From Octopus sinensis (Eukaryota), in NCBI RefSeq assembly GCF_006345805.1, contig NW_021834831.1, positions 1 to 45,531 of the forward strand: a stretch of 45,531 nt of DNA, in the 5' to 3' direction. A program made the translations under genes and the position numbers. Of the stretch, positions 5,701-35,720 are shown in pieces. Below the pieces are notes generated by a model that saw only the letters and a list, made by a program, of their open reading frames with translations, was not told the origin of the DNA and ran no database searches. How positions within the stretch are numbered: position 1 is the stretch's first letter; each line of letters starts with the position of its first letter.

Positions 5701-6059
5701 ACTATTATCTTATTATTACCTTAACATCAGGTAAACTTAATAGATATATTGATGCATGTGCTTTAGTGTTGGTGTCAATAAAATGTGTTGATGTATGTAT
5801 GCATGTATACACAAACATACACACACACATACATACACACACGCACTCACACTCACTCACACACACTCACACATACACAGGGTGACAGCGCTGAGCGGTG
5901 ATGTGCATAAATACAAACTTGTTACCAATTCAAATGTGTTTTGGACATATTCAAACCTGTAATAAAGCCATTCATTGTAGTTTGTCTTGGAGAAAATTTC
6001 TTGCTGTAGGCAGAGAGATGTAAATACACCGAGTCAGCTCATGCCGTCAACTAACTGAA

Positions 6060-6107
6060 CTGTGGGATGCATGCATTTCGGAGTGGTAAGCTCCTCTTCA
6101 GGCACAG
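6060..6107 (-). ncRNA. Type I hammerhead ribozyme motif
   Basis: Minus strand: CUGUG-C CUGAAGA GGAG cuuacca CUCC GAAA UGCAUGCA UC^ C-CACAG. Core intact, 4-bp stem II, palindromic stem III, 5-bp stem I with a C.C mismatch next to the core. Confidence 0.8.
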
Positions 6108-6479
6108 AGACCGAAAAGGTAGACGCTGCAAAGTGACACGAGAAACAGGCCCCTCTTATGATATTCCAATCATCGTTCAATTATCGGTTGCAACTCCAAA
6201 GTTAATGAAAGAAATCATCTCTTTTCAATCCTAGAAACAGATGTAACGCCTTACCGTCTTATTATAATGAGGAAGAGAACGATGGGCAGTAAATACATGA
6301 ATCACACGGTCTGCAACGCTGGGTTAAAATCACTAAGTCAAAATAGAAAATATGAAATGGGAAGCAAAAGAAATAAAATGAGACCATCTATGGTGTATTA
6401 GGGCTAAATTTGACAATATTCATCAGAGGAAAAGAAAACACAATGCCCCATCAACAAAAAGTAATATTTTTAAAAAATC

Positions 6480-7240
6480 AAAAATTATCACTAGCTTATG
6501 GTTAGGAGATTGCAGTTTACTCGAAGAAACCACTCTTAGCTTCCACCACAGCCTCAAGAGAGCACCAAAACCTGGCGTATGCTTTCCTCAGTGTGCCCCT
6601 GGAAAGATCTTTGAACAACTCCTTGACCTTAGCCACAGTGTTTGTGTTGCAGGCAGAGCGGTTGGTGTATTTCTCAGTAAGAGGTTCGGATTAGAATCTA
6701 GGAAATTAGGCGGTCAGAAATTGAAGCTCGTGAAATTGTAGAAATTCTCCGACAACCACTTCTGACTCTGTCCGGAGATATGGCAAGGAGCCGAATCATG
6801 CCGCCACACATATGACCTTTCAGTAGCAACCCACTCTAGCCAGTGATTAACCACAATCTCCAGTAGCTTTACATAGCCGTCTGAATTGAGCTTAAAGCCC
6901 TGTTCAAAGATGTGGGGAGAGATTCCCAAAGATCATCACAGTTTGGGGAAACTCAAGTTTTCACGATGTCCATGTCACATCTTACAGCCTTTACGGTGTT
7001 CACAGAGCACTGAGAAGCAGTTATGATGTTAACATTTTGATACCTGGCGCGAACCATCATTACACATAACTTTTTACCAATATTCAACTGGTTTTCAGTC
7101 TTCCATGCCAGCTAAGTTTTTCTCAACTACAGTTTTAATCTTCATGTTCTCCCACGCTGTTGACTATTCGGCAATACATCAAACTGTTCCTGAAAATAAT
7201 GAGACATAAATATCATCAAATTTATCCCGAACACCTTCTA
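6480..7240 (-). mobile_element. Degenerate Tc1/mariner (maT/DD37D-like) DNA transposon
   Basis: ORF 6714-6929 contains YVKLLE..V..W...YVWRHDSAPCH..QKWL, followed by *PPNFLDSNP (WPPNSPDLNP relic) and LEAVVEAKSGFFE; stops and deletions present. Confidence 0.75.
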
Positions 7241-7279
7241 CCCCTGGGAAGGTATGTATTTGATAGTGCTTCAAATAGA

Positions 7280-7600
7280 AAGATCAACTGATAGACGATT
7301 TTAATAAATCGGCAGAAACATTTAGGAAAATATTAAGCGGTGGTTTGCGAAGAAATGGACTTCGATTTTGTAGATCAAGCTTGATTGTTGGTAACAACCA
7401 AATTTCAAGAACATAAATTGTTGATTTAACAAACAGGACGATGTAGATCCTTTTTTAGTCACCTCGACATCCGAAATGCTCACGGGCTTTTTCGAGACTG
7501 ACTTTTATTACTTCGATTGAGAATTTAATGACGCAGAAGGAAATCAGGGTCGTAAATAGCCTAATAAAACCTATCGGCTGCAAATTGATTGCCCTTATGG
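7280..7600 (-). pseudogene. Possible highly decayed Penelope-like RT fragment
   Basis: Frame-shifted relics TLISFCV, FLKFGCYQQ, PLNIF and RLSVDLF occur in the order expected for a PLE RT (SFDV, F..YQQ, ANIF, RYVDDIF); weak. Confidence 0.3.
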
Positions 7601-7670
7601 GTTCCGTTTTCATTTGATCGTACCTATATGCATTAATAAATTTTTATGATGTCGATAATATATTATATCG

Positions 7671-8026
7671 TAGCACTCCGTCGGTTACGACGACGAGGGT
7701 TCCAGTTGATCCGATCAACGGAACAGCCTGCTTGTGAAATTAACGTGCAAGTACTCCATAGACATGTGTACCCTTATTGTAGTTCTCGGGGAGATTCAGC
7801 GTGACACAAAGTATGACAAGGCTGGCCCTTTGAAATACAGGTACAGTTGAAACAGGAAGAAAGGATGAAAGTTGTGGTGAAAGAGTACAGCAGGGCTCGC
7901 CACCACCCCGTGCCAGAGCTTCGTGGAACTTTAGGTGTTTTCGCTCAATAACCACTCACAACGCCCAGTCTGGGAATCGAAGCCACGACCCTACGACTGC
8001 GAGTCCTCTGCTCTAACCACTGAGCC
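7671..8026 (-). mobile_element. tRNA-derived SINE family C, full length
   Basis: Head TGGCTCAGTGGTTAGAGC...GCTTCGATTCCC (A and B boxes); its 3' part recurs at 40115-40195 and its middle at 38225-38270. Confidence 0.85.
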
Positions 8027-8096
<70 letters not shown>

Positions 8097-8876
8097 TCCC
8101 GCCGTTCTTTTATTTAAATTTTTAAAAGGCTTAATAAAAAATAATAACTAATTAATCAATGATGTATTCACCCTTGTTGTTTGCAACTTCTTCCCAACGT
8201 TCAACACGATTTTCAATACCTTGTTGATAGAAATCAACCGATTTCAACTCGAAAAACTGATCCAACCAAGCTCTCAATTCTGCATCAGTACTGAACGAAA
8301 TTCCGCACATAGCATTTGAAAGAGATCGAAAGAGGCGGAGATCCGTTGGTGCCAAATCAGGAGAGTACGGCGGGTGTGGCAGCACTTCCCAGCCATGCGT
8401 TTGAATGGCTTCTTTGGTCATATTGGCGATATGAGGGCGGGCGTCGTCGTGCAGCAGAAGAACTCCATGCTGACGATTAGGTCTTCCTCTTGAATAGCCG
8501 GGTTGAGTCGTTCCATCTGTTGAACATAGAGTTCCGCGTTGACCGTTTGGTTCCGTTCAAGCAATTCGTAATGGATAATCCCTTCCCAGTCCCACCATAC
8601 GCACAACATCGTTTTATGCGGATGAAGATCTTGTTCCACGCGCGGTTTCGCTTGTTTACCGGGGCTAAGCCATTCCTTACGCTGCTTCATAATAATGTAC
8701 AGGCACCATTTTTCGTTGCCAGTAACAATTCGGTAAAGAAATCGTTGCTTGTATCCATGAGTTGAGCGGTGACGAGCAAGCAAACCAGCGGAGATTGTGG
8801 CTCGTTGATTTTTGTTTTTGTCACTTAAAGCATGCGGAACCCATGCTCCATATTTCTGAACCTTTCCCATCGAGTG
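8097..8876 (-). pseudogene. mariner (DD34D) transposase, 5'-truncated and frameshifted
   Basis: WVPHALS, RIVTGNEKW, KTMLCVWW, HDDARPH (shifted frame) and HPPYSPDLAPTD motifs; stop at 8152-8154. Confidence 0.92.
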
Positions 8877-9081
8877 AGAGTTAGAGCTTCCAACGAACAA
8901 ACAACGACAGAGTGGACGTACAGAGTGAACAATCGATGAAGACAAACATTAAGGACCGTTAGGCCAAACGAATTGTAATGAGTAACGCCTGGGAGAATAT
9001 TTTTCAAGGAAATAGAATAATTAGAAGATAAGAAAATAGTAGAAGAAAAAATTCTGGATCCGAGATAAATGACATCCAACC

Positions 9082-9648
9082 CTCAGTGGTTAGAGCAGAG
9101 GACTCGCAGTCGTAGGGTCGTGGCTTCGATTCCCAGACTGGGCGTTGTGAGTGGTTATTGAGCGAAAACACCTAAACATATATATTCTTGCTGTTCTTTC
9201 TCTGATGACGGTCTAAGGAAACTAGAAACCAATCCTCACACGTTTTCTGTCTACCGAAAAATATATATGGCTCAGTGGTTAGAGCAGAGGACTCGCAGTC
9301 GTAGGGTCGTGGCTTCGATTCCCAGACTGGGCGTTGTGAGTGGTTATTGAGTGAAAACACCTAAACATATATATTCTTGCTGTTCTTTCTCTGATGACGA
9401 TCTAAGGAAACTAGAAACCAATCCTCACTACACGTTTTCTGTCTACCGAAAAATATATATGGCTCAGTGGTTAGAGCAGAGGACTCGCAGTCGTAGGGTC
9501 GTGGCTTCGATTCCCAGGCTGGGCGTTGTGAGTGGTTATTGAGCGAAAACACCTAAATATATATATTCTTGCTGTTCTTTCTCTGATGACGGTCTAAGGA
9601 AACTAGAAACCAATCCTCACTACACGTTTTCTGTCTACAGAAAAATAT
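9082..9648 (+). repeat. Three-unit tandem array (189/192 bp): SINE-C tRNA-like head + about 95-bp spacer
   Basis: Units start at 9082, 9271 and 9463 and are nearly identical. Confidence 0.95.
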
Positions 9649-10442
9649 AACTTATGGTGTAAACACTTTATTTTTCACAGCGTGATTAGAATTGCAGGTT
9701 TATTGAGAAAAGTATATTCTTCATTTTAATATGTATGTGTGGGTGTGCGCACGCACGTCCGCATATGCATATATGCATATATGTACGTGTAGGTGTGCAT
9801 AAATACAAACACTTACATATATACATACACACACGCATACACACATTCGCATACACACACATACCTACATAGATACATACACAAACATTTTTACCTTTTC
9901 AAACGTTCTACTGGTGACAAACGACTTCCCCTTCCGGTGCCGAACTATACCTATCCCGGAACCTGAAAATAAAGCAATGACATTGATTCTTGTTTTATTT
10001 TTAGTTCTGATTTTCTTTGTGCTCTTCTCTTGGAGAAGGAATAAGATGTACTTCTTATTGAATACCTGGTCGCTTGAAATACTGTTAATGAAAATAAATG
10101 AAACTGAAGAGGTATGCAGCTACTGACACCTTAGAAATTATGTGGCTATTGATATAGAACAAAATACATATTAAATTAATCAGTCAAAATTTGCCTACGA
10201 CAAAGAAATCAACGTGATTGTTGATGCATTATGCTAACAGTAAAAAGAACATTTAGTGGAAAGTCTACACGAATTCTATCAGCATAGAAGAAAGAAAAGA
10301 AATGTTAAATATATTTCTTTCAATTCTTGATAATGAGACTGTGAAGTTCTAGAAATTTCGGATATGGATTTAGGATTTGCACTCTTGCAACCCAAGAGCA
10401 AAAACCTAATATGAAAATATGAAAAATACAAAGAAAAATGAA

Positions 10443-14347: not shown

Positions 14348-14445
<98 letters not shown>

Positions 14446-14662
14446 TTATTATTATTATTATTATTATTGTTGTTGTTGTTATTGTTATTGTTATTGTTGT
14501 TGTTTTTGTTGTTGATGTTGTTGTTGTTGTTGTTGTTCTTCTTCTTCTTCTTGTTATTGTTATTGTTATTATTATTATTATTATATTATTATTATTATAT
14601 TATTATTATTATTATTATTATTATCATCATCATCATCATCATTATTATTACTATTATTATTA

Positions 14663-14720
<58 letters not shown>

Positions 14721-14983
14721 GTTGTTGTTTTTATTATTATTATTATTATTATTGTTATTATTATTATTATTATAAGCTAAGATTCTGAGATTGGTATTTG
14801 GATATTAAATGTCTTCCACGATAATTAACAACCAAGTATCAAAGCTTATAATACGCGGAAAGTGACCCTAAGAGTCCACTGATTGCAGGCTGCTGTCGGC
14901 TCTCACAGAATCTACCGGCACAAACAAGACCGAACGTTCTGAGAAGTACAAGAATAACAACAACAACTATAATAATAATAATA

Positions 14984-15050
<67 letters not shown>

Positions 15051-15184
15051 ATATTATTATTATTATTTTATTATTATTATTATTATTATTGTTGTTGTTG
15101 TTATTGTTATTGTTATTGTTGTTGTTTTTGTTGTTGATGTTGTTGTTGTTGTTGTTCTTCTTCTTCTTCTTCTTGTTATTGTTA

Positions 15185-15220
<36 letters not shown>

Positions 15221-15253
15221 TATTATTATTATTATTATTTATTATTATTATTA

Positions 15254-15310
<57 letters not shown>

Positions 15311-15581
15311 TATTATTATTATTTTATTATTATTATTGTTGTTGTTTTTATTATTATTATTATTATTGTTATTATTATTATTATTATAAGCTAAGATTCT
15401 GAGATTGGTATTTGGATATTAAATGTCTTCCACGATAATTAACAACCAAGTATCAAAGCTTATAATACGCGGAAAGTGACCCTAAGAGTCCACTGATTGC
15501 AGGCTGCTGTCGGCTCTCACAGAATCTACCGGCACAAACAAGACCGAACGTTCTGAGAAGTACAAGAATAACAACAACAAC

Positions 15582-15612
<31 letters not shown>

Positions 15613-15635
15613 TAATATAATAATAATAATAATAA
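14322..15635. repeat. Compound trinucleotide microsatellite within a about 614-bp tandem duplication
   Basis: Unique about 190-bp block at 14774 repeated at 15388; (AAT)(ATT)(GTT)(CTT) pattern duplicated. Confidence 0.92.
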
Positions 15636-20212: not shown

Positions 20213-20700
20213 TAAGGTTTTCAAAAATATTTCATCGTTCTCGATACAATCAAGGAGATCTCGTGCAAATGAAACCCGAGTGTCTTTTTGGTCAGCTCAA
20301 AGCAATTTTGGCTCAAACTTAGCAGACACACGTCTCATCCCCATATCTTCAGTGATAATAGACTGAACTGAGCCGTAACTAATCAGCACGTCCTCTGATA
20401 TCTCACGGATGGTTATTCGATGATTTCTCCTCGCATCTGCACGCACATCTGCGATATTTTTCCCAGTCCTGCCGGTTCCGGGTCTCCCACAACGTTCGTC
20501 AATATCGACATTTTTTCGGCCATCTTGGAAACGTCTGAACCACTCGTACACTTGTGTGCGGCTCATACACTCCTCTCCATACACTTTCTGTAACTTTGCG
20601 TAGGCCTCTGAGCAAGTATCGCCATGAAAACTTTCTCTGTCATGGTCAATACGACGATCACACGCTACACACCTTCCTTCCAAACAGTGCTGTAAAAAGC
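20213..20700 (-). pseudogene. mariner transposase N-terminal HTH fragment
   Basis: MSRTQVYEWFRRFQDG, ERCGRP, RITIREISEDV.ISYGSVQSIITEDMGMRRVSAKFEPKLL; catalytic domain absent. Confidence 0.9.
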
Positions 20701-21354
20701 GGAAGTGAGCTACAACGCTAAAACTTAGTGCTCATGCACAAGGTGACAAATTACAAACACCATACCTTTGTAATTCTAACGTCTTTTTAGCTTTTTTTTT
20801 TCCTTTCCTTAATTTTTGCTACCGACGAAAAGTTTTTGACAACCCAGATTCTTAAAATGAATTTATTGTCTTCCTGTATGAAACGATCATATACCTACAT
20901 GGATAAAAATAATTTCAATCCATATTAACATCTAATCTCTTCCATTTACATAAAATATGATTGAATTTGTTGAATTTTGTTTCATAAGTTAAATCATATA
21001 CTTAATATACTTATATAACTTTTCATATCTATGCTAATTTACACCAGTAAATTAATGTAAAGTATGAAGAAACAACGTTAGAAATCTTTTGGAAACTACT
21101 CCAGTTAAAGGACGAATTCACATTCAACCCTTTTAAAAATATATATATCTACGGATATATATATATATATTGTCTTACGCCCAAAAAAGCCGACCCATGG
21201 AATAACAACGCACCACACACCTTGTGAATGTTCGATATACAGTATATACATGTATGTATGTATGTATGTATGTATGTATGTATGTATGCATGTATGTATG
21301 TATATATATAGAGAGAGAGAGAGGGGAGAAAGAGAGAGAGAAAGTGAGAGAGAG

Positions 21355-23449: not shown

Positions 23450-24510
23450 ACGCGAAGTGCATTCCAGAAGTTTTTAGAATATTTTTTCGGACAGGCATTA
23501 TAAATGTCATAGATTACTGTAATTTCAGTCTATCATTACTATGCATCTAAAGAGCTGACCTGCTAACTTTTGTTATCCCAGTTGTTAGGAGACGGCTGCA
23601 AACAACACTTTGAAGCCACTCTACAAAACATTACTTATCACAGCTGACTAGTTTTCAGAATGCAGTCGAGACTGGCAGCGAACTGGCAGAAACGTTAGCA
23701 CGCCGGGCGAAATGCGTAGCCGTATTTCGTCTGCCGTTACGTTCTGAGTTCAAATTCCGCCGAGGTCGACTTTGCCTTTCATCCTTTCGGGGTCGATAAA
23801 TTAAGTACCAGTTACGCACTGGGGTCGATGTAATCGACCTAATCCGTTTGTCTGTCCTTGTTTGTACCCTCTGTGTGTAGCCCCTTGTGGGTAGTAAAGA
23901 AATAGGTATTTCGTTTGCCACTACGTTCTGAGTTCAAATTCCGCCGAGGTCGACTTTGCCTTTCATCCTTTCGGGGTCGATAAATTAAGTACCAGTTACG
24001 CACTGGAGTCGATGTAATCGACCTAATCCGTTTGTCTATCCTCGTTTGTCCCCTCTGTGTGTAGCCCCTTGTGGGTAGTAAAGAAATAGGTATTTCGTTT
24101 GCCACTACGTTCTGAGTTCAAATTCCGCCGAGGTCGACTTTGCCTTTCATCCTTTCGGGGTCGATAAATTAAGTAACAGTTACGCACTGGGGTCGATGTA
24201 ATCGACTTAATCCGTTTGTCTGTCCTTGTTTGTCCGCTCTATGTGTAGCCCCTTGTGGGCAGTAAAGAAATAAGAATGCAGTCGAGACGTGAAATAATAT
24301 GGAAGCTCGCTATGCAATAAAATTTTCGTGTTACATTAGACAAAAACGCTACAGAAACTTAAAAAGTGCTCTGGTCTGTTTATGGATTAACTTGTATGAG
24401 CCGTACGTTTTTCGCAGGCACTTGAGGTGAGACAGAGATGGACATCAAAATTGTCTCTCACCCTCCCTACTGTCCAGACTTTTCTCCCTGTGACTTCTAG
24501 TTTTTCTCAA
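23450..24510 (+). mobile_element. Internally deleted mariner element hosting the SINE trimer
   Basis: After the SINE: MEARYAIKF, NATET and YGLTCMSR relics, then IKIVSHPPYCPDFSPCDF (YSPDLAPCDF relic). Confidence 0.7.
23673..24272 (+). mobile_element. SINE family A trimer inside one 16-bp TSD
   Basis: One full unit plus two 184-bp head-truncated units; AGAATGCAGTCGAGAC at 23657-23672 and 24273-24288. Confidence 0.95.
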
Positions 24511-25560: not shown

Positions 25561-25643
25561 CCATAGCTAGGGCCGGCCCGTTGCCAGACTTTGGTGCCCG
25601 GGGTGCTTCAGAATATTCTAAGTAAGCACTGACTTGTATTCCA

Positions 25644-26025
25644 GGAAGATTTTTGTAAACGGAATTTTCTACATCTGAGGGTACACCATTGAATAGTGAA
25701 GGGGGAAGTACCGTCCAGTGAACCCACTTAGCAGCGGGCATAATTTAAGAAGAAAAGTAAGTCAAACTCCAAGGAACATACTGCGGGAAGATTTTTGTAA
25801 ACGGTATAGTCCAAATCTGAGGGTGCACCATTGAAATAAGGAGGAGGGCACTGCTTTTCAGAGCATTCCCTTAGCGACGGGCATGGTTTAAGTAGAAAAG
25901 TTAGTCAGACTTCAAGAAACGTACTGCATGAAGACAGTTCTAACTGTATTTTCTAAATCTGAGGGTGCAATATTGAATAGTGAGAGGTAAGTGCCTTCCA
26001 GTGCATTCCCTTACCGACGGGCATA
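25644..26025. repeat. About 142-bp diverged minisatellite, about 2.7 units
   Basis: ggaagatttttgtaaacgg at 25644 and 25786, third unit near 25929; shared atctgagggt.ca..attgaa and ctta.c..cgggcat. Confidence 0.88.
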
Positions 26026-32470: not shown

Positions 32471-32690
32471 TGTGTGTATATGTTTGTGTGTTTGTGTTTG
32501 TCCCCCCAACATCGCTTGACAACCGATGCTGGTGTGTTTATGCCCCCGTAACTTCGCGGTTCGGCAAAACAGACCAATAGAATAAGTACTAGGCTGACAA
32601 AGAATAAGTCCTGGGGTCGTCGACTAAAGGCGGTGCTCCAGCATGGCCACAGTCAAATGACTGAAACAAGTAAAAGAGTAAAAGAGTAAA
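32237..32690 (+). mobile_element. SINE family B, full length, young
   Basis: GGCGTAGGAGTGG...CAAGTAAAAGAGTAAAAGAGTAAA. Confidence 0.93.
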
Positions 32691-35105
32691 CCAATTGATA
32701 TGCATGTTCAAAAGGACTATGGAAGAACAAACTGATATACCACATTGGCTTGCTACAGCAAGGACAAGTCTCGTTGCCAAAAATGAAATCATCGAGATGG
32801 CAGGAAGCTACAGGCCCGTTACTTGCCTAAGCATTATGTACAAGCCGTACACAAGTAGCCTCAACCAATTCCTTCACGAGGAATCGAACAACATTGTGAC
32901 TTATGAACAGGCTGGTGGAAAGAAGGGAGTGTGGGGATGTGCCGAACAACTTTTAATAAAAGAAAACTGTACTGTCTGAAGTTAGAAAACAACGCAGAAA
33001 CCTTGTGACAGTATGGCTTGTCTATATGAAGGCATTCGACTCTATTTGTCATTCATGGCTGTTGGAGTGCCAACATCTGGCAAAGGGACCTCCTTCTTTA
33101 ATTGCTGCAAAAGAGAGACTCACAAAGACATGGACAACTATTCTTACCCTTACTACTGAGAAAAGAATAATTGTTTCTGATAGTATAAGCATTACAAAGG
33201 GAATATTCCATTATCGTTCCTACTGCAGAAAACAAATGGTTACATGCTAGGATCTTCAACTGCCAGAAATATCAATGTAACTCATAATTTCTTTGTAGAC
33301 GACCTGAAGATTTATGCTAAAAGTGTTAAGAATGCCAAAAAAACAACTGGAATTATTAACATTTTCAACTAATATAGGCATGGAATTTGGCCAAAAGGAA
33401 TGTTCATATTTGGTTATAGAACGAGGAAAATTAGTCCCTCGAACTCAATACCTATGCATCAACGGTCTTTCTATCTCCCCCATTCCTCACAAAAAATGTT
33501 ACAAGTACCTAGGCATAGACGAAAATGTATCATATGAAGGCACTGTGAATAAAAATAGAATGACCCGATAATATTACACCAGACTCAGGAAAATATGGCA
33601 GTTGGAACTCTCCTCTTACAACAAAACAATATTCCACAATGCATTTACAGTACCAGGGCTCAAACCAACATTTGGGATACTTGATTGATCTGTAGAGGAA
33701 ATCCACTCGATAGATATAAAACCCCACAAAATCCTGACAATAACTGAGAACATCCACAGAAACAGTGATGTTGACAGGCTCTACCTAAGAAGAAATGAAG
33801 GTGGTAGAGGCCTGATAATCAGTGCAGACGGCATTCGAACGCCGTATGGTATCACTCAGGCAGCACCTGCTAAACAACAACAGCAAAAATAAATATTAAT
33901 GCAGTGCTGAAAAGCGAAGTGAGCAACATTGTACGCGTTGGCAGTGAACGCCTCAAGCAACATTCTCTTCCTAATGATCTCCTATACAGCCCCCAAACAG
34001 CTGGGCTCTCTTACCTCAGAGAAGACCTGGATGGAAAGCACTCAGCGTACAAAAAAAAAATGTTTATGCATGGTTATGCTGCCCGGAAGCTTGAAGGTGA
34101 CAGTAGAATTGACACGAAGCGCAGCCTCTCTTGGACACAAGACCACTACATCACATCACATTTTGAAGGCTATGCGTTTGCAATCCAAGAACAAGAGATT
34201 GCCACAAAGTACCTGGAGAGCAAGCGAGAAAGTGACGCTCTTGTAATCCCAAGTGGCAACCACATGTGTAGGCTATATCTTGTTTTCGTGGAAGACATTA
34301 CGCTTGTGATTAGCAGCTGTCCTAAAATGTCTTCACGGTACCATCTCTCAATGTGGTACGATGTAGTTGCTAAAACAATTTACAATGCCATCTGCAATAA
34401 AGACTGTCCTGAAATTAACTTAGAAAATCCCTCTGCTATGGAATACATTCATGACCAACCAACTCAAGGAATTCTGGTGGAATATTTGCGTCAAAACTTC
34501 TGTCAAATGTAAGCGTAACAAGCCGGATATTGTTGTTTGGGACTAGGGGCAATGGTATATACCACACATACATACATACATACATACATACATACATACA
34601 TACATACATACATACATACATACATACATACCGGATGTTAACATAAAGCTGAAGATCAGTGAAAAAGAGAATATTTACGCTGAACTATTGAAAAATATGC
34701 AGTTACTCTATCCAGATTACAAGTTCAGGTTCATACCTGTAATTATTGGGGTCCTGGGATACGTAACACACTGCTTAAATACCAATCTTGAGAAATTAAG
34801 TTTCTCAAAACCAGAAAGGAGAAAGCTAATTCGAAGACTACAGATCCAATCCATCACTAGAACTGTAAAAATTTGTAAAACTTCCCAGAAGTTTATCATT
34901 TAAATGTATATGAGCATGTCTTGATATGCAACTATATGCATGAGAATACATGCATAAGTAAAACATAGAAATTTGCAGATATACATACATACATACAAGT
35001 AATAATGCCCTGTTGTTGATGTTAAAATTCTAATGAAGGAGCCTTGGATCTAGGTTAGAAACTGGCTCTTTCTCTATTCGCAAGAAATCTTGAAATAAAA
35101 CTGGA
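32691..35105 (+). mobile_element. 5'-truncated non-LTR retrotransposon with RT and restriction-like endonuclease (R4/Dong-like), pseudogenised
   Basis: YRPVTCLSIMYK, EQAGGKKG..GC.EQLLI, KAFDSICHSWL, FVDDLKIY, YKYLGI, GGRGL, AIQEQEIATKY, CRL..EDI...ISSC, KPDIVVW and PVIIGVLG motifs in order; frameshifts; (TACA)n inserted at about 34565-34630; stop at 34901-34903, then 3' UTR. Confidence 0.9.
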
Positions 35106-35303
35106 CAATGACATACATGCATACATACATGTGTGTGTGTGTGCGCGTGTTTGTGTGTGAGCGCTCCCGCGCGCGTAACGCACTGTTCCGTGTTGGTAAG
35201 ATCAACAACAAAGTCCTCCATCTGGTGAGAGATAAATATGATTTAACAGACATGTTTTTATGCGCTACTATTCTCTCATTCTATTTTTTTTTAGTTCTTT
35301 TTG

Positions 35304-35380
35304 ATATGTCATTTGTGCCTGATGAATATGTTAAGCTATTTCTCAACATATGAAGCTATAAGTAGCACATAAAAACATAT
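35304..35380 (+). ncRNA. Extended type I hammerhead ribozyme motif (A15.1G variant)
   Basis: AUAUGU cauu UGUGC CUGAUGA AUAUGUU aagcuauuucuc AACAUAU GAAG CU aua AG UA^ GCACA uaaaa ACAUAU: 7-bp stem II and bipartite stem I with an internal loop; GAAG replaces GAAA. Confidence 0.8.
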
Positions 35381-35509
35381 ATAGTGTCTATCGTAAGTGT
35401 TTTAGTGTGTGTGTGTACGTGCGTGCGTGTGTGTGTACGTGCGTGTGTGCGTGCGTGTGTGTGTGTGCGTGCGTATGTGTGTGTGTGGCTGGGGTACCTT
35501 TGTATCAAT

Positions 35510-35720
35510 GCCTATCCCCCATAACCACTAGTCAACCGGTGTTGCTGTGTTTACGTCCCCTAACTTAGCGTTTCGACAAAAGTAGGCGATAGAATAAGTA
35601 GCAGGCTTTTTAAAATATTTAGTATTGGGGGGGGGGCATCGATTCGTTCGACTAAAATTCATCGAGGTGGTGGTGCTCCAGCATGGCCATAGTCAAAATA
35701 ACCGAAGCAAGTAAAAAGAA
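35510..35720 (+). mobile_element. SINE family B 3' half
   Basis: tttacgtcccc taacttagcg...gtgctccagcatggcc. Confidence 0.8.

Follow-up and report, generated by a model that had tools for sequence, protein, structure and literature searches.

The antisense segment at 35252-35269 of the window (the whole stretch of 45,531 nucleotides of Octopus sinensis DNA analyzed here) probably belongs to an insertion, small and old, of the 3' end of a Penelope-like element (PLE) family, the part that bears the hammerhead (pseudo-LTR, or pLTR); in it, two 5'-truncated copies would stand head to head in a microsatellite. The inverted arm (35180-35270, − strand) would keep the 3' tail and end a few bases past the cleavage site, whereas the direct arm (35284-35392) would keep the whole hammerhead and lack the last 55 to 65 nt, that is, the tail; the 18-nt antisense would be the overlap between the two arms. 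Such an insertion would have been mobilized by a PLE reverse transcriptase (RT) and GIY-YIG endonuclease, with priming at both ends of the break and dimer cleavage by the family ribozyme. If the locus were transcribed, the inverted arm would block the hammerhead fold as a by-product.

Layout of the locus

The window consists of microsatellite-rich animal DNA (97 tandem-repeat rows), with short interspersed repeats, mariner remnants, and a decayed LINE. A second copy of the hammerhead family was not found within it, nor was a host gene detected; Pfam matched 4 of the 91 window ORF fragments scanned, out of 134 candidate fragments (three mariner domains and one sub-threshold match). The parts of the locus are listed below, depth being the summed depth of contigs from public sequencing runs placed on it.

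35106-35179 (no strand): left flank, mixed microsatellite, presumed target; depth near single-copy at 35150-35169
35180-35246 (−): tail, the 3' terminal part of the inverted arm, from paralog contig depth, joints, and loose ends
35247-35270 (−): inverted arm over the hammerhead 3' strand, 5'-truncated near 35270; contains the 17/18 antisense 35252-35269
35271-35283 (no strand): head-to-head junction between the arms; low depth (227 in run X1 at 35270-35279)
35284-35304 (+): U-rich family sequence 5' of the hammerhead, the putative 5'-truncated start of the direct arm
35305-35318 (+): 5' strand of stem I, made up of a distal part (35305-35309), an internal loop, and a proximal part (35314-35318)
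35319-35325 (+): core C3-A9; the single family variant listed is at N7 (35323)
35326-35351 (+): stem II and loop II; 7 bp, A-U closing pair
35352-35364 (+): G12-A13-A14, position 15.1, short stem III/loop III, and cleavage triplet; predicted cut after 35364
35365-35392 (+): 3' strand of stem I (35365-35379), followed by the AT-rich 3' terminus of the direct arm, without tail
35396-35487 (no strand): right flank, (TG)n-type microsatellite, presumed target; single-copy depth at 35400-35420

The inner boundary of the inverted arm is uncertain within 35270-35279. Paralog pieces begin at 35284 or span 35284-35363 in four of four runs, and they stop at 35388-35392. In the paralog contigs, the family sequence corresponding to 35180-35246 sits 3' of the hammerhead, on the hammerhead strand. 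A 5-bp direct repeat is present at 35174-35178 and 35392-35396, the two presumptive ends of the insertion, and is a weak and doubtful candidate for a target-site duplication.

The hammerhead motif and its family

The + strand at 35305-35379 has the layout of a type I hammerhead, in agreement with the first-pass annotation, which had described a hammerhead with a bipartite stem I and an internal loop. Stem I comprises 5 bp at 35314-35318/35365-35369, a 4x5 internal loop, and a further 5 bp at 35305-35309/35375-35379. The core boxes C3-U4-G5-A6-N7-G8-A9 (35319-35325) and G12-A13-A14 (35352-35354) are present, stem II (35326-35332/35345-35351) is Watson-Crick paired at 7 of 7 positions, stems I and II close on the core, and the cleavage triplet at 35362-35364 fits N-U-H. 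Stem II is closed directly by A35326-U35351, without a G10.1-C11.1 pair and without an extra base after A9. The missing pair and extra nucleotide are typical of the stem II base of PLE minimal hammerheads, which counts against the PLE assignment, and in the strict sense the window copy is not a metazoan PLE minimal hammerhead. Rfam gave no gathering hits in the window, and none of its 13 weak matches in 35000-35600 was to a hammerhead.

Part of 35150-35420 is contained in 5 of 24 listed public runs, of which the contigs of four were used, one per organism label (960, 666, 716, and 494 contig records placed on the locus). In run X1, summed depth, which is not copy number, was 32.7 in the flanks, approximately 87,000 at 35220-35229, and 6,000 to 9,000 over the 5' half of the hammerhead. 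At 35350-35359 it reached approximately 40,900, 22,100, 5,100, and 2,900 in the four runs, again not to be read as copy number. Between these parts, at 35260-35269, it was 86.5, 8.5, 18.9, and 11, i.e., 1 to 5 times the single-copy level, with the qualification that paralogs with identical letters are placed on 35361-35378 instead. Two high-copy blocks are thus separated by a nearly locus-specific stretch. The first-pass annotation had asked whether the antisense segment is conserved across family copies; with this in-place depth against thousands at 35350-35359, the segment appears to be largely peculiar to the window copy.

The family differs from the window copy at two positions of the cleavage region. 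Position 35355 is A in 93 to 96% of family depth in the four runs (38,416 of 40,555 in X1) and G in the window, where the A15.1-U16.1 pair is consequently missing. The family letter makes G15.1 a lesion of the window locus, and the earlier suspicion that this copy may be impaired on that account is supported by it. The pair is usually essential, mutants being at least 10-fold slower (PMC3088659, in the text available). Position 35360 is T in approximately 95 to 98% of family depth in the four runs and A in the window. If it carries the family letters, the segment 35355-35363 pairs with itself at 8 of its 9 positions (duplex, −4.9 kcal/mol), which fits the short, palindromic helix III that allows dimer cleavage of animal type I hammerheads as described in PMC4209133. 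The same segment of the window copy forms four Watson-Crick and two G-U self-pairs (duplex, −1.7 kcal/mol); the A at 35360 breaks the palindrome of loop III on which dimer cleavage would be expected to depend. The window copy therefore likely carries two disabling changes (35355 and 35360) and would be inactive; by its G at 15.1 we file it as a decayed member of the type I hammerhead class. The lesion at 35360 adds to what the first-pass annotation had noticed, as does the placing of the antisense at the end of a longer inverted arm (see below).

Variation within the family is unevenly spread. Among the variants listed, outside of which fall four, including any 3' of 35360, none lies at 35319-35322, 35324-35325, or 35352-35354, and the core varies, besides 35355, only at N7 (35323). 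Variants in stem II would keep G-U pairs at 35346 and 35347, and those at 35328 and 35330 would not all keep the pair. Loop II is hypervariable among the variants listed, with substitutions at 35333-35338 and indels at 35329-35336, which argues against a conserved loop I-loop II contact. In two runs, 35340 is preceded by the same 30-letter consensus, which was drawn from 35 and 23 contigs with an agreement of 0.66 to 0.69 and looks self-complementary; loose ends are found before 35337 too. The letters suggest a subfamily in which a long hairpin replaces loop II. Judged by its sequence, the family likely encodes a real ribozyme. Among the titles listed by a literature search on octopus hammerhead ribozymes, none describes the family, and "hammerhead" and "ribozyme" occur 0 times in the main text, as available, of a 2026 repeat annotation of O. 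vulgaris (PMC13282606). Repeat libraries (the supplements of PMC13282606 and PMC8557442, and Repbase/Dfam) may already contain it.

Antisense pairing and predicted folding

The antisense match reported by the first-pass annotation was reproduced: 35252-35269 pairs with 35361-35378 at 17 of 18 positions, the mismatch being 35263 against 35367. This exceeds chance, since in dinucleotide shuffles of the upstream 145 nt the best 18-mer antisense score was at most 15 (0 of 300 reached 17), and real control tiles of the window that scored at least 17 (9 of 195) were all simple repeats, with 2 to 7 distinct 3-mers versus 13 in the segment found here. That the two pairings exclude each other, as also claimed, is supported by fold prediction: with the antisense included, ViennaRNA gave a pair probability of 1.0 to the antisense and 0.0 to stem I, and the evaluated energies were −19.7 kcal/mol for the antisense pairing versus −6.5 kcal/mol for the hammerhead. 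When 35300-35382 was folded alone, stem I and stem II had predicted probabilities of 0.71 and 0.81, respectively. In several longer antisense-free fragments a local alternative hairpin competes, and stem I fell to 0.02 to 0.38 versus 0.53 to 0.71 in two tight fragments. Complete sequestration by the antisense is predicted with the family letters too. The antisense would thus be predicted to block the hammerhead fold if the locus were transcribed, and nothing suggests that it is under selection; any inverted duplication predicts the same fold.

Evidence for a probable inverted arm

Within the window, homology between the arms does not extend significantly past the 18-mer (61% of 3000 shuffles reach an equally high score), and the contiguity of tail and hammerhead therefore rests on paralog contigs. 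There, 15 of the 24 joints are listed, and 11 of these 15 lead from 35224-35252 onto 35325-35392 on the opposite strand. The shorter side of these joints measures 24 to 51 letters, so the inverted part in the paralogs exceeds 18 nt. Loose ends behind 35245/35246 resemble, by eye, the reverse complement of 35360-35390, most clearly in run X5; their consensus behind 35246 was drawn from 60, 41, 48, and 34 contigs, with an agreement of only 0.55 to 0.59. Loose ends before 35182 are (AT)n-like. In the paralogs the tail runs into the reverse complement of the hammerhead 3' half, and 35180-35246 and the 18-mer are for this reason likely one inverted copy. On the simplest reading, the order of the family on the hammerhead strand would be hammerhead, AT-rich linker, reverse complement of 35180-35246, and (AT)n-like end. 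Base 35270 is complementary to the family T at 35360 and not to the window A, so that the change in the direct arm likely postdates the insertion. Further two-arm copies, with other breakpoints, are suggested by four skip joints on the same strand (35232-35261 to 35337/35350).

These features agree with what is described for PLEs. In the paralog contigs the hammerhead belongs to a dispersed repeat and lies near its 3' end, as in a pLTR, and the joints (15 of 24 listed) show an inverted 5'-truncated copy adjoining the 5' side, with the tail on one arm. PLE insertions are heavily 5' truncated, often with an inverted 5'-truncated copy adjoining the 5' end; they carry a tail of 30 to 40 bp, often at one end only, and hammerheads in the pLTR, and some clades have a microsatellite bias (PMC8557442, in part). 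The tail is optional on one of two inverted pLTRs, and head-to-head junctions are the most frequent (PMC3846280, in part). The tail of approximately 55 to 65 nt at the locus, against the 30 to 40 bp reported, counts against the assignment. No PLE ORF was detected in the window, Pfam searches of 9 and 91 ORF fragments found no GIY-YIG domain, and the only RT signal in the window is one weak RVT_1 match, in the neighboring LINE; an RT/GIY-YIG ORF is not expected in a truncated copy. Since neither a reverse transcriptase nor an endonuclease of a PLE turned up, the assignment to PLEs rests on architecture, by which we class the module as a terminal repeat of PLE type, whether autonomous or not.

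At 35350 there is an ATG that overlaps G12; in the window copy, the frame it opens meets a stop at 35359-35361. The frame from 35350 is stop-free through the inverted arm for approximately 30 codons, and 11% of shuffles are equally open. Three protein searches gave no real homologue of the inverted-arm peptide: none scored among 11 candidates in one, none was found in another, and one, P0002, was found in the third. P0002 was rejected as a homologue, being a NACHT and helical-repeat protein that matched via its repeats.

A contig from organism D covers the stretch as a single piece (six other letters, four gaps; depth, 5.6) and is an apparent orthologue of the locus. Four of the six changes were placed (35264 G>A, 35284 T>C, 35306 A>T, and 35333 A>C), and by implication G35355 and A35360 are kept. 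Two of these four affect paired positions, 35264 breaking an antisense pair and 35306 a pair of distal stem I. In this one contig, where compensatory changes are possible, such pair breaking is only suggestive as an argument against a selected antisense.

Alternative explanations

The first-pass annotation had proposed either a conformational off-switch or a remnant of inverted pseudo-LTR formation. The remnant is supported by the paralog joints and the contiguity of the tail; the switch is not supported, given the two lesions and an antisense that is not in place across the family. That the 18-mer was kept by selection to silence the ribozyme in a read-through transcript would accord with the complete sequestration predicted (1.0 versus 0.0 for stem I, also with family letters), with the blocking by complementary sequences described for plant retrozyme and viroid circles (PMC7229834, in part), and with a locus apparently common to organisms A and D. 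A switch under selection, however, would require a functional ribozyme together with an antisense that is conserved; the ribozyme to be controlled has the lesions at 35355 and 35360, and the antisense, not seen in place across the family, has one mismatch already and another in organism D. With no evident switching trigger, and a fold that any inverted duplication predicts, a switch is not supported and we consider it very unlikely. A chance resemblance in AT-rich DNA, to which the lack of an Rfam hammerhead match and the core mismatch at 15.1 might point, is hardly credible given that 0 of 300 shuffles reach 17/18, that the family majority restores the core, and that the variation listed spares it.

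Two other origins of the arrangement were weighed. In a tail-to-tail fold-back, a plus-strand tail (35180-35246) would have primed itself and copied the hammerhead 3' strand backwards, leaving three pieces (tail forward, arm reverse, hammerhead forward). Sense self-priming would yield tail-to-tail repeats (PMC3846280, in part), an AT-rich motif resembling the direct-arm end terminates the loose ends before 35182, and opposite-strand joints land variably (mostly at 35368-35392) from the near-fixed 35243-35246. Variable landing is, however, also explained by indels in the AT-rich linker, and the loose ends before 35182 match nothing in the stretch. Such an origin, moreover, predicts that the commonest joint leads from the direct-arm end back to 35182, which was found in 0 of the 15 joints listed (24 in all), and it requires most copies to be fold-backs; we regard it as unlikely. 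The locus might instead be one monomer, approximately 210 nt long, of non-LTR retrozyme or MITE-like type, with a built-in antisense giving a rod-like circular RNA. Its size would lie within the 150- to 450-bp range of animal retrozymes (PMC7229834, in part), and it has a type I hammerhead, a short helix III, and no ORF, but a tandem copy is absent, the middle of the unit (35260-35283) is not common to the family, and animal retrozyme circles usually leave the hammerhead unblocked (same source), all of which makes a monomer highly improbable.

Other candidates were tried and rejected. The module is not part of the upstream LINE, which seems to end near 35105, depth being near single-copy at 35150-35169. 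A-to-I editing as the source of A-to-G changes (35355, and 35263 on the minus strand) would account for 2 of approximately 6 locus-specific changes, which is no signal. Exact-motif scans of metagenomes returned 0 loci and 1 locus, the latter judged a chance match, with no hammerhead core beside it, and a viral scan returned 2 loci, of which the one examined was judged chance.

Neighborhood of the locus

At 32674-35105 (+) lies a decayed, 5'-truncated non-LTR retrotransposon with remnants of RT (weak RVT_1; E value, 0.0069), zinc knuckle, and restriction-like endonuclease, interrupted by an (ACAT)n array at 34566-34631. Its C-terminal zinc-knuckle and restriction-like endonuclease motifs suggest the R4/Dong kind; the element and the hammerhead module are separate. 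Another hammerhead-like motif, unrelated to the first, is found at 6060-6112 (−; C3 at 6101), with intact core boxes, a mismatch at position 1.1, a 4-bp stem II closed by G-C, and a helix III that is a perfect 8-nt palindrome; it likely represents the solo terminal repeat of a different PLE family. Tc1/mariner transposase remnants lie on the − strand at 8155-8948 and 20300-20731 (Pfam DDE_3, Transposase_1, and HTH_48), and 6500-7100 (−), where Pfam gave no match, is by its motifs presumably another.

Tandem duplications are also present. One of approximately 680 bp (14348-15635; 96% identity) surrounds arrays of (AAT)n/(ATT)n, has inverted pieces inside it, and could be a further insertion of PLE type. 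At 9082-9649, three 192-bp units in tandem (97% identity) have a head that by eye looks tRNA-like, and a 105-bp copy, inverted and nearly identical, lies beyond the mariner remnant at 7930-8034. A 184-bp interspersed-repeat unit is arrayed in 3 copies at 23722-24272 (95%), and a 143-bp unit in 2.7 copies at 25642-26025 (76%).

Significance and comparison with known systems

On this reading the locus is one more truncated PLE-type insertion, and its modest value is the family, whose many natural variants would permit a covariation model and a test of dimer cleavage. It also carries a caution: antisense sequence next to a hammerhead in a genome is what the geometry of PLE insertion would lead one to expect, and does not by itself make a riboswitch. 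More would follow if this were an undescribed high-copy family with a two-part stem I and a freely varying, sometimes long-hairpin, loop II that routinely builds arms (short, inverted, and stopping just past the cleavage site) as antisense locks in host read-through transcripts, locked copies being preferentially retained. We give this little credence; if locked copies were enriched in transcribed regions, it would mean host-level selection against self-cleavage.

Among known systems, each compared in the text available, animal non-LTR retrozymes share with the locus the non-coding type I hammerhead repeat and are proposed to depend on PLEs (PMC7229834; Li et al. 2026, bioRxiv 10.64898/2026.07.22.740005). 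Retrozymes, however, form head-to-tail tandem arrays (Cervera and de la Pena 2020, PMC7229834) of 150- to 450-bp hammerhead units, whereas the locus is a single head-to-head unit. In the green anole Poseidon element PAc, the ORF begins inside the hammerhead and two reverse-transcription start sites bound the tail (Frangieh et al. 2024, PMC11167929). The locus is similar in its ATG within the hammerhead, overlapping G12, with a frame open in the inverted arm, and differs in that this frame, open by chance in 11% of shuffles and without a protein homologue, is weak evidence.

The hammerheads of PLEs (Cervera and de la Pena 2014, PMC4209133) have the same type I topology, long helix II (7 bp), and 5-bp proximal helix I, and the same palindromic helix III/loop III as the family majority; they too occur mostly as solo copies. 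Unlike them, the locus has an A-U pair closing helix II, no extra base after A9, and a second 5-bp segment of helix I past the internal loop, and the window copy has lost A15.1 and the palindrome. Compared with endonuclease-bearing PLEs (Arkhipova et al. 2013, PMC3846280; Craig et al. 2021, PMC8557442), the locus has no ORF between the arms, a longer tail, and no clear target-site duplication, and its partner RT/GIY-YIG element was not found. It nevertheless has the same inverted arm on the 5' side and the same head-to-head junction as these elements, and it shares with them the tail on one arm, the hammerhead near the 3' end, the presumed microsatellite target, and the heavy truncation.
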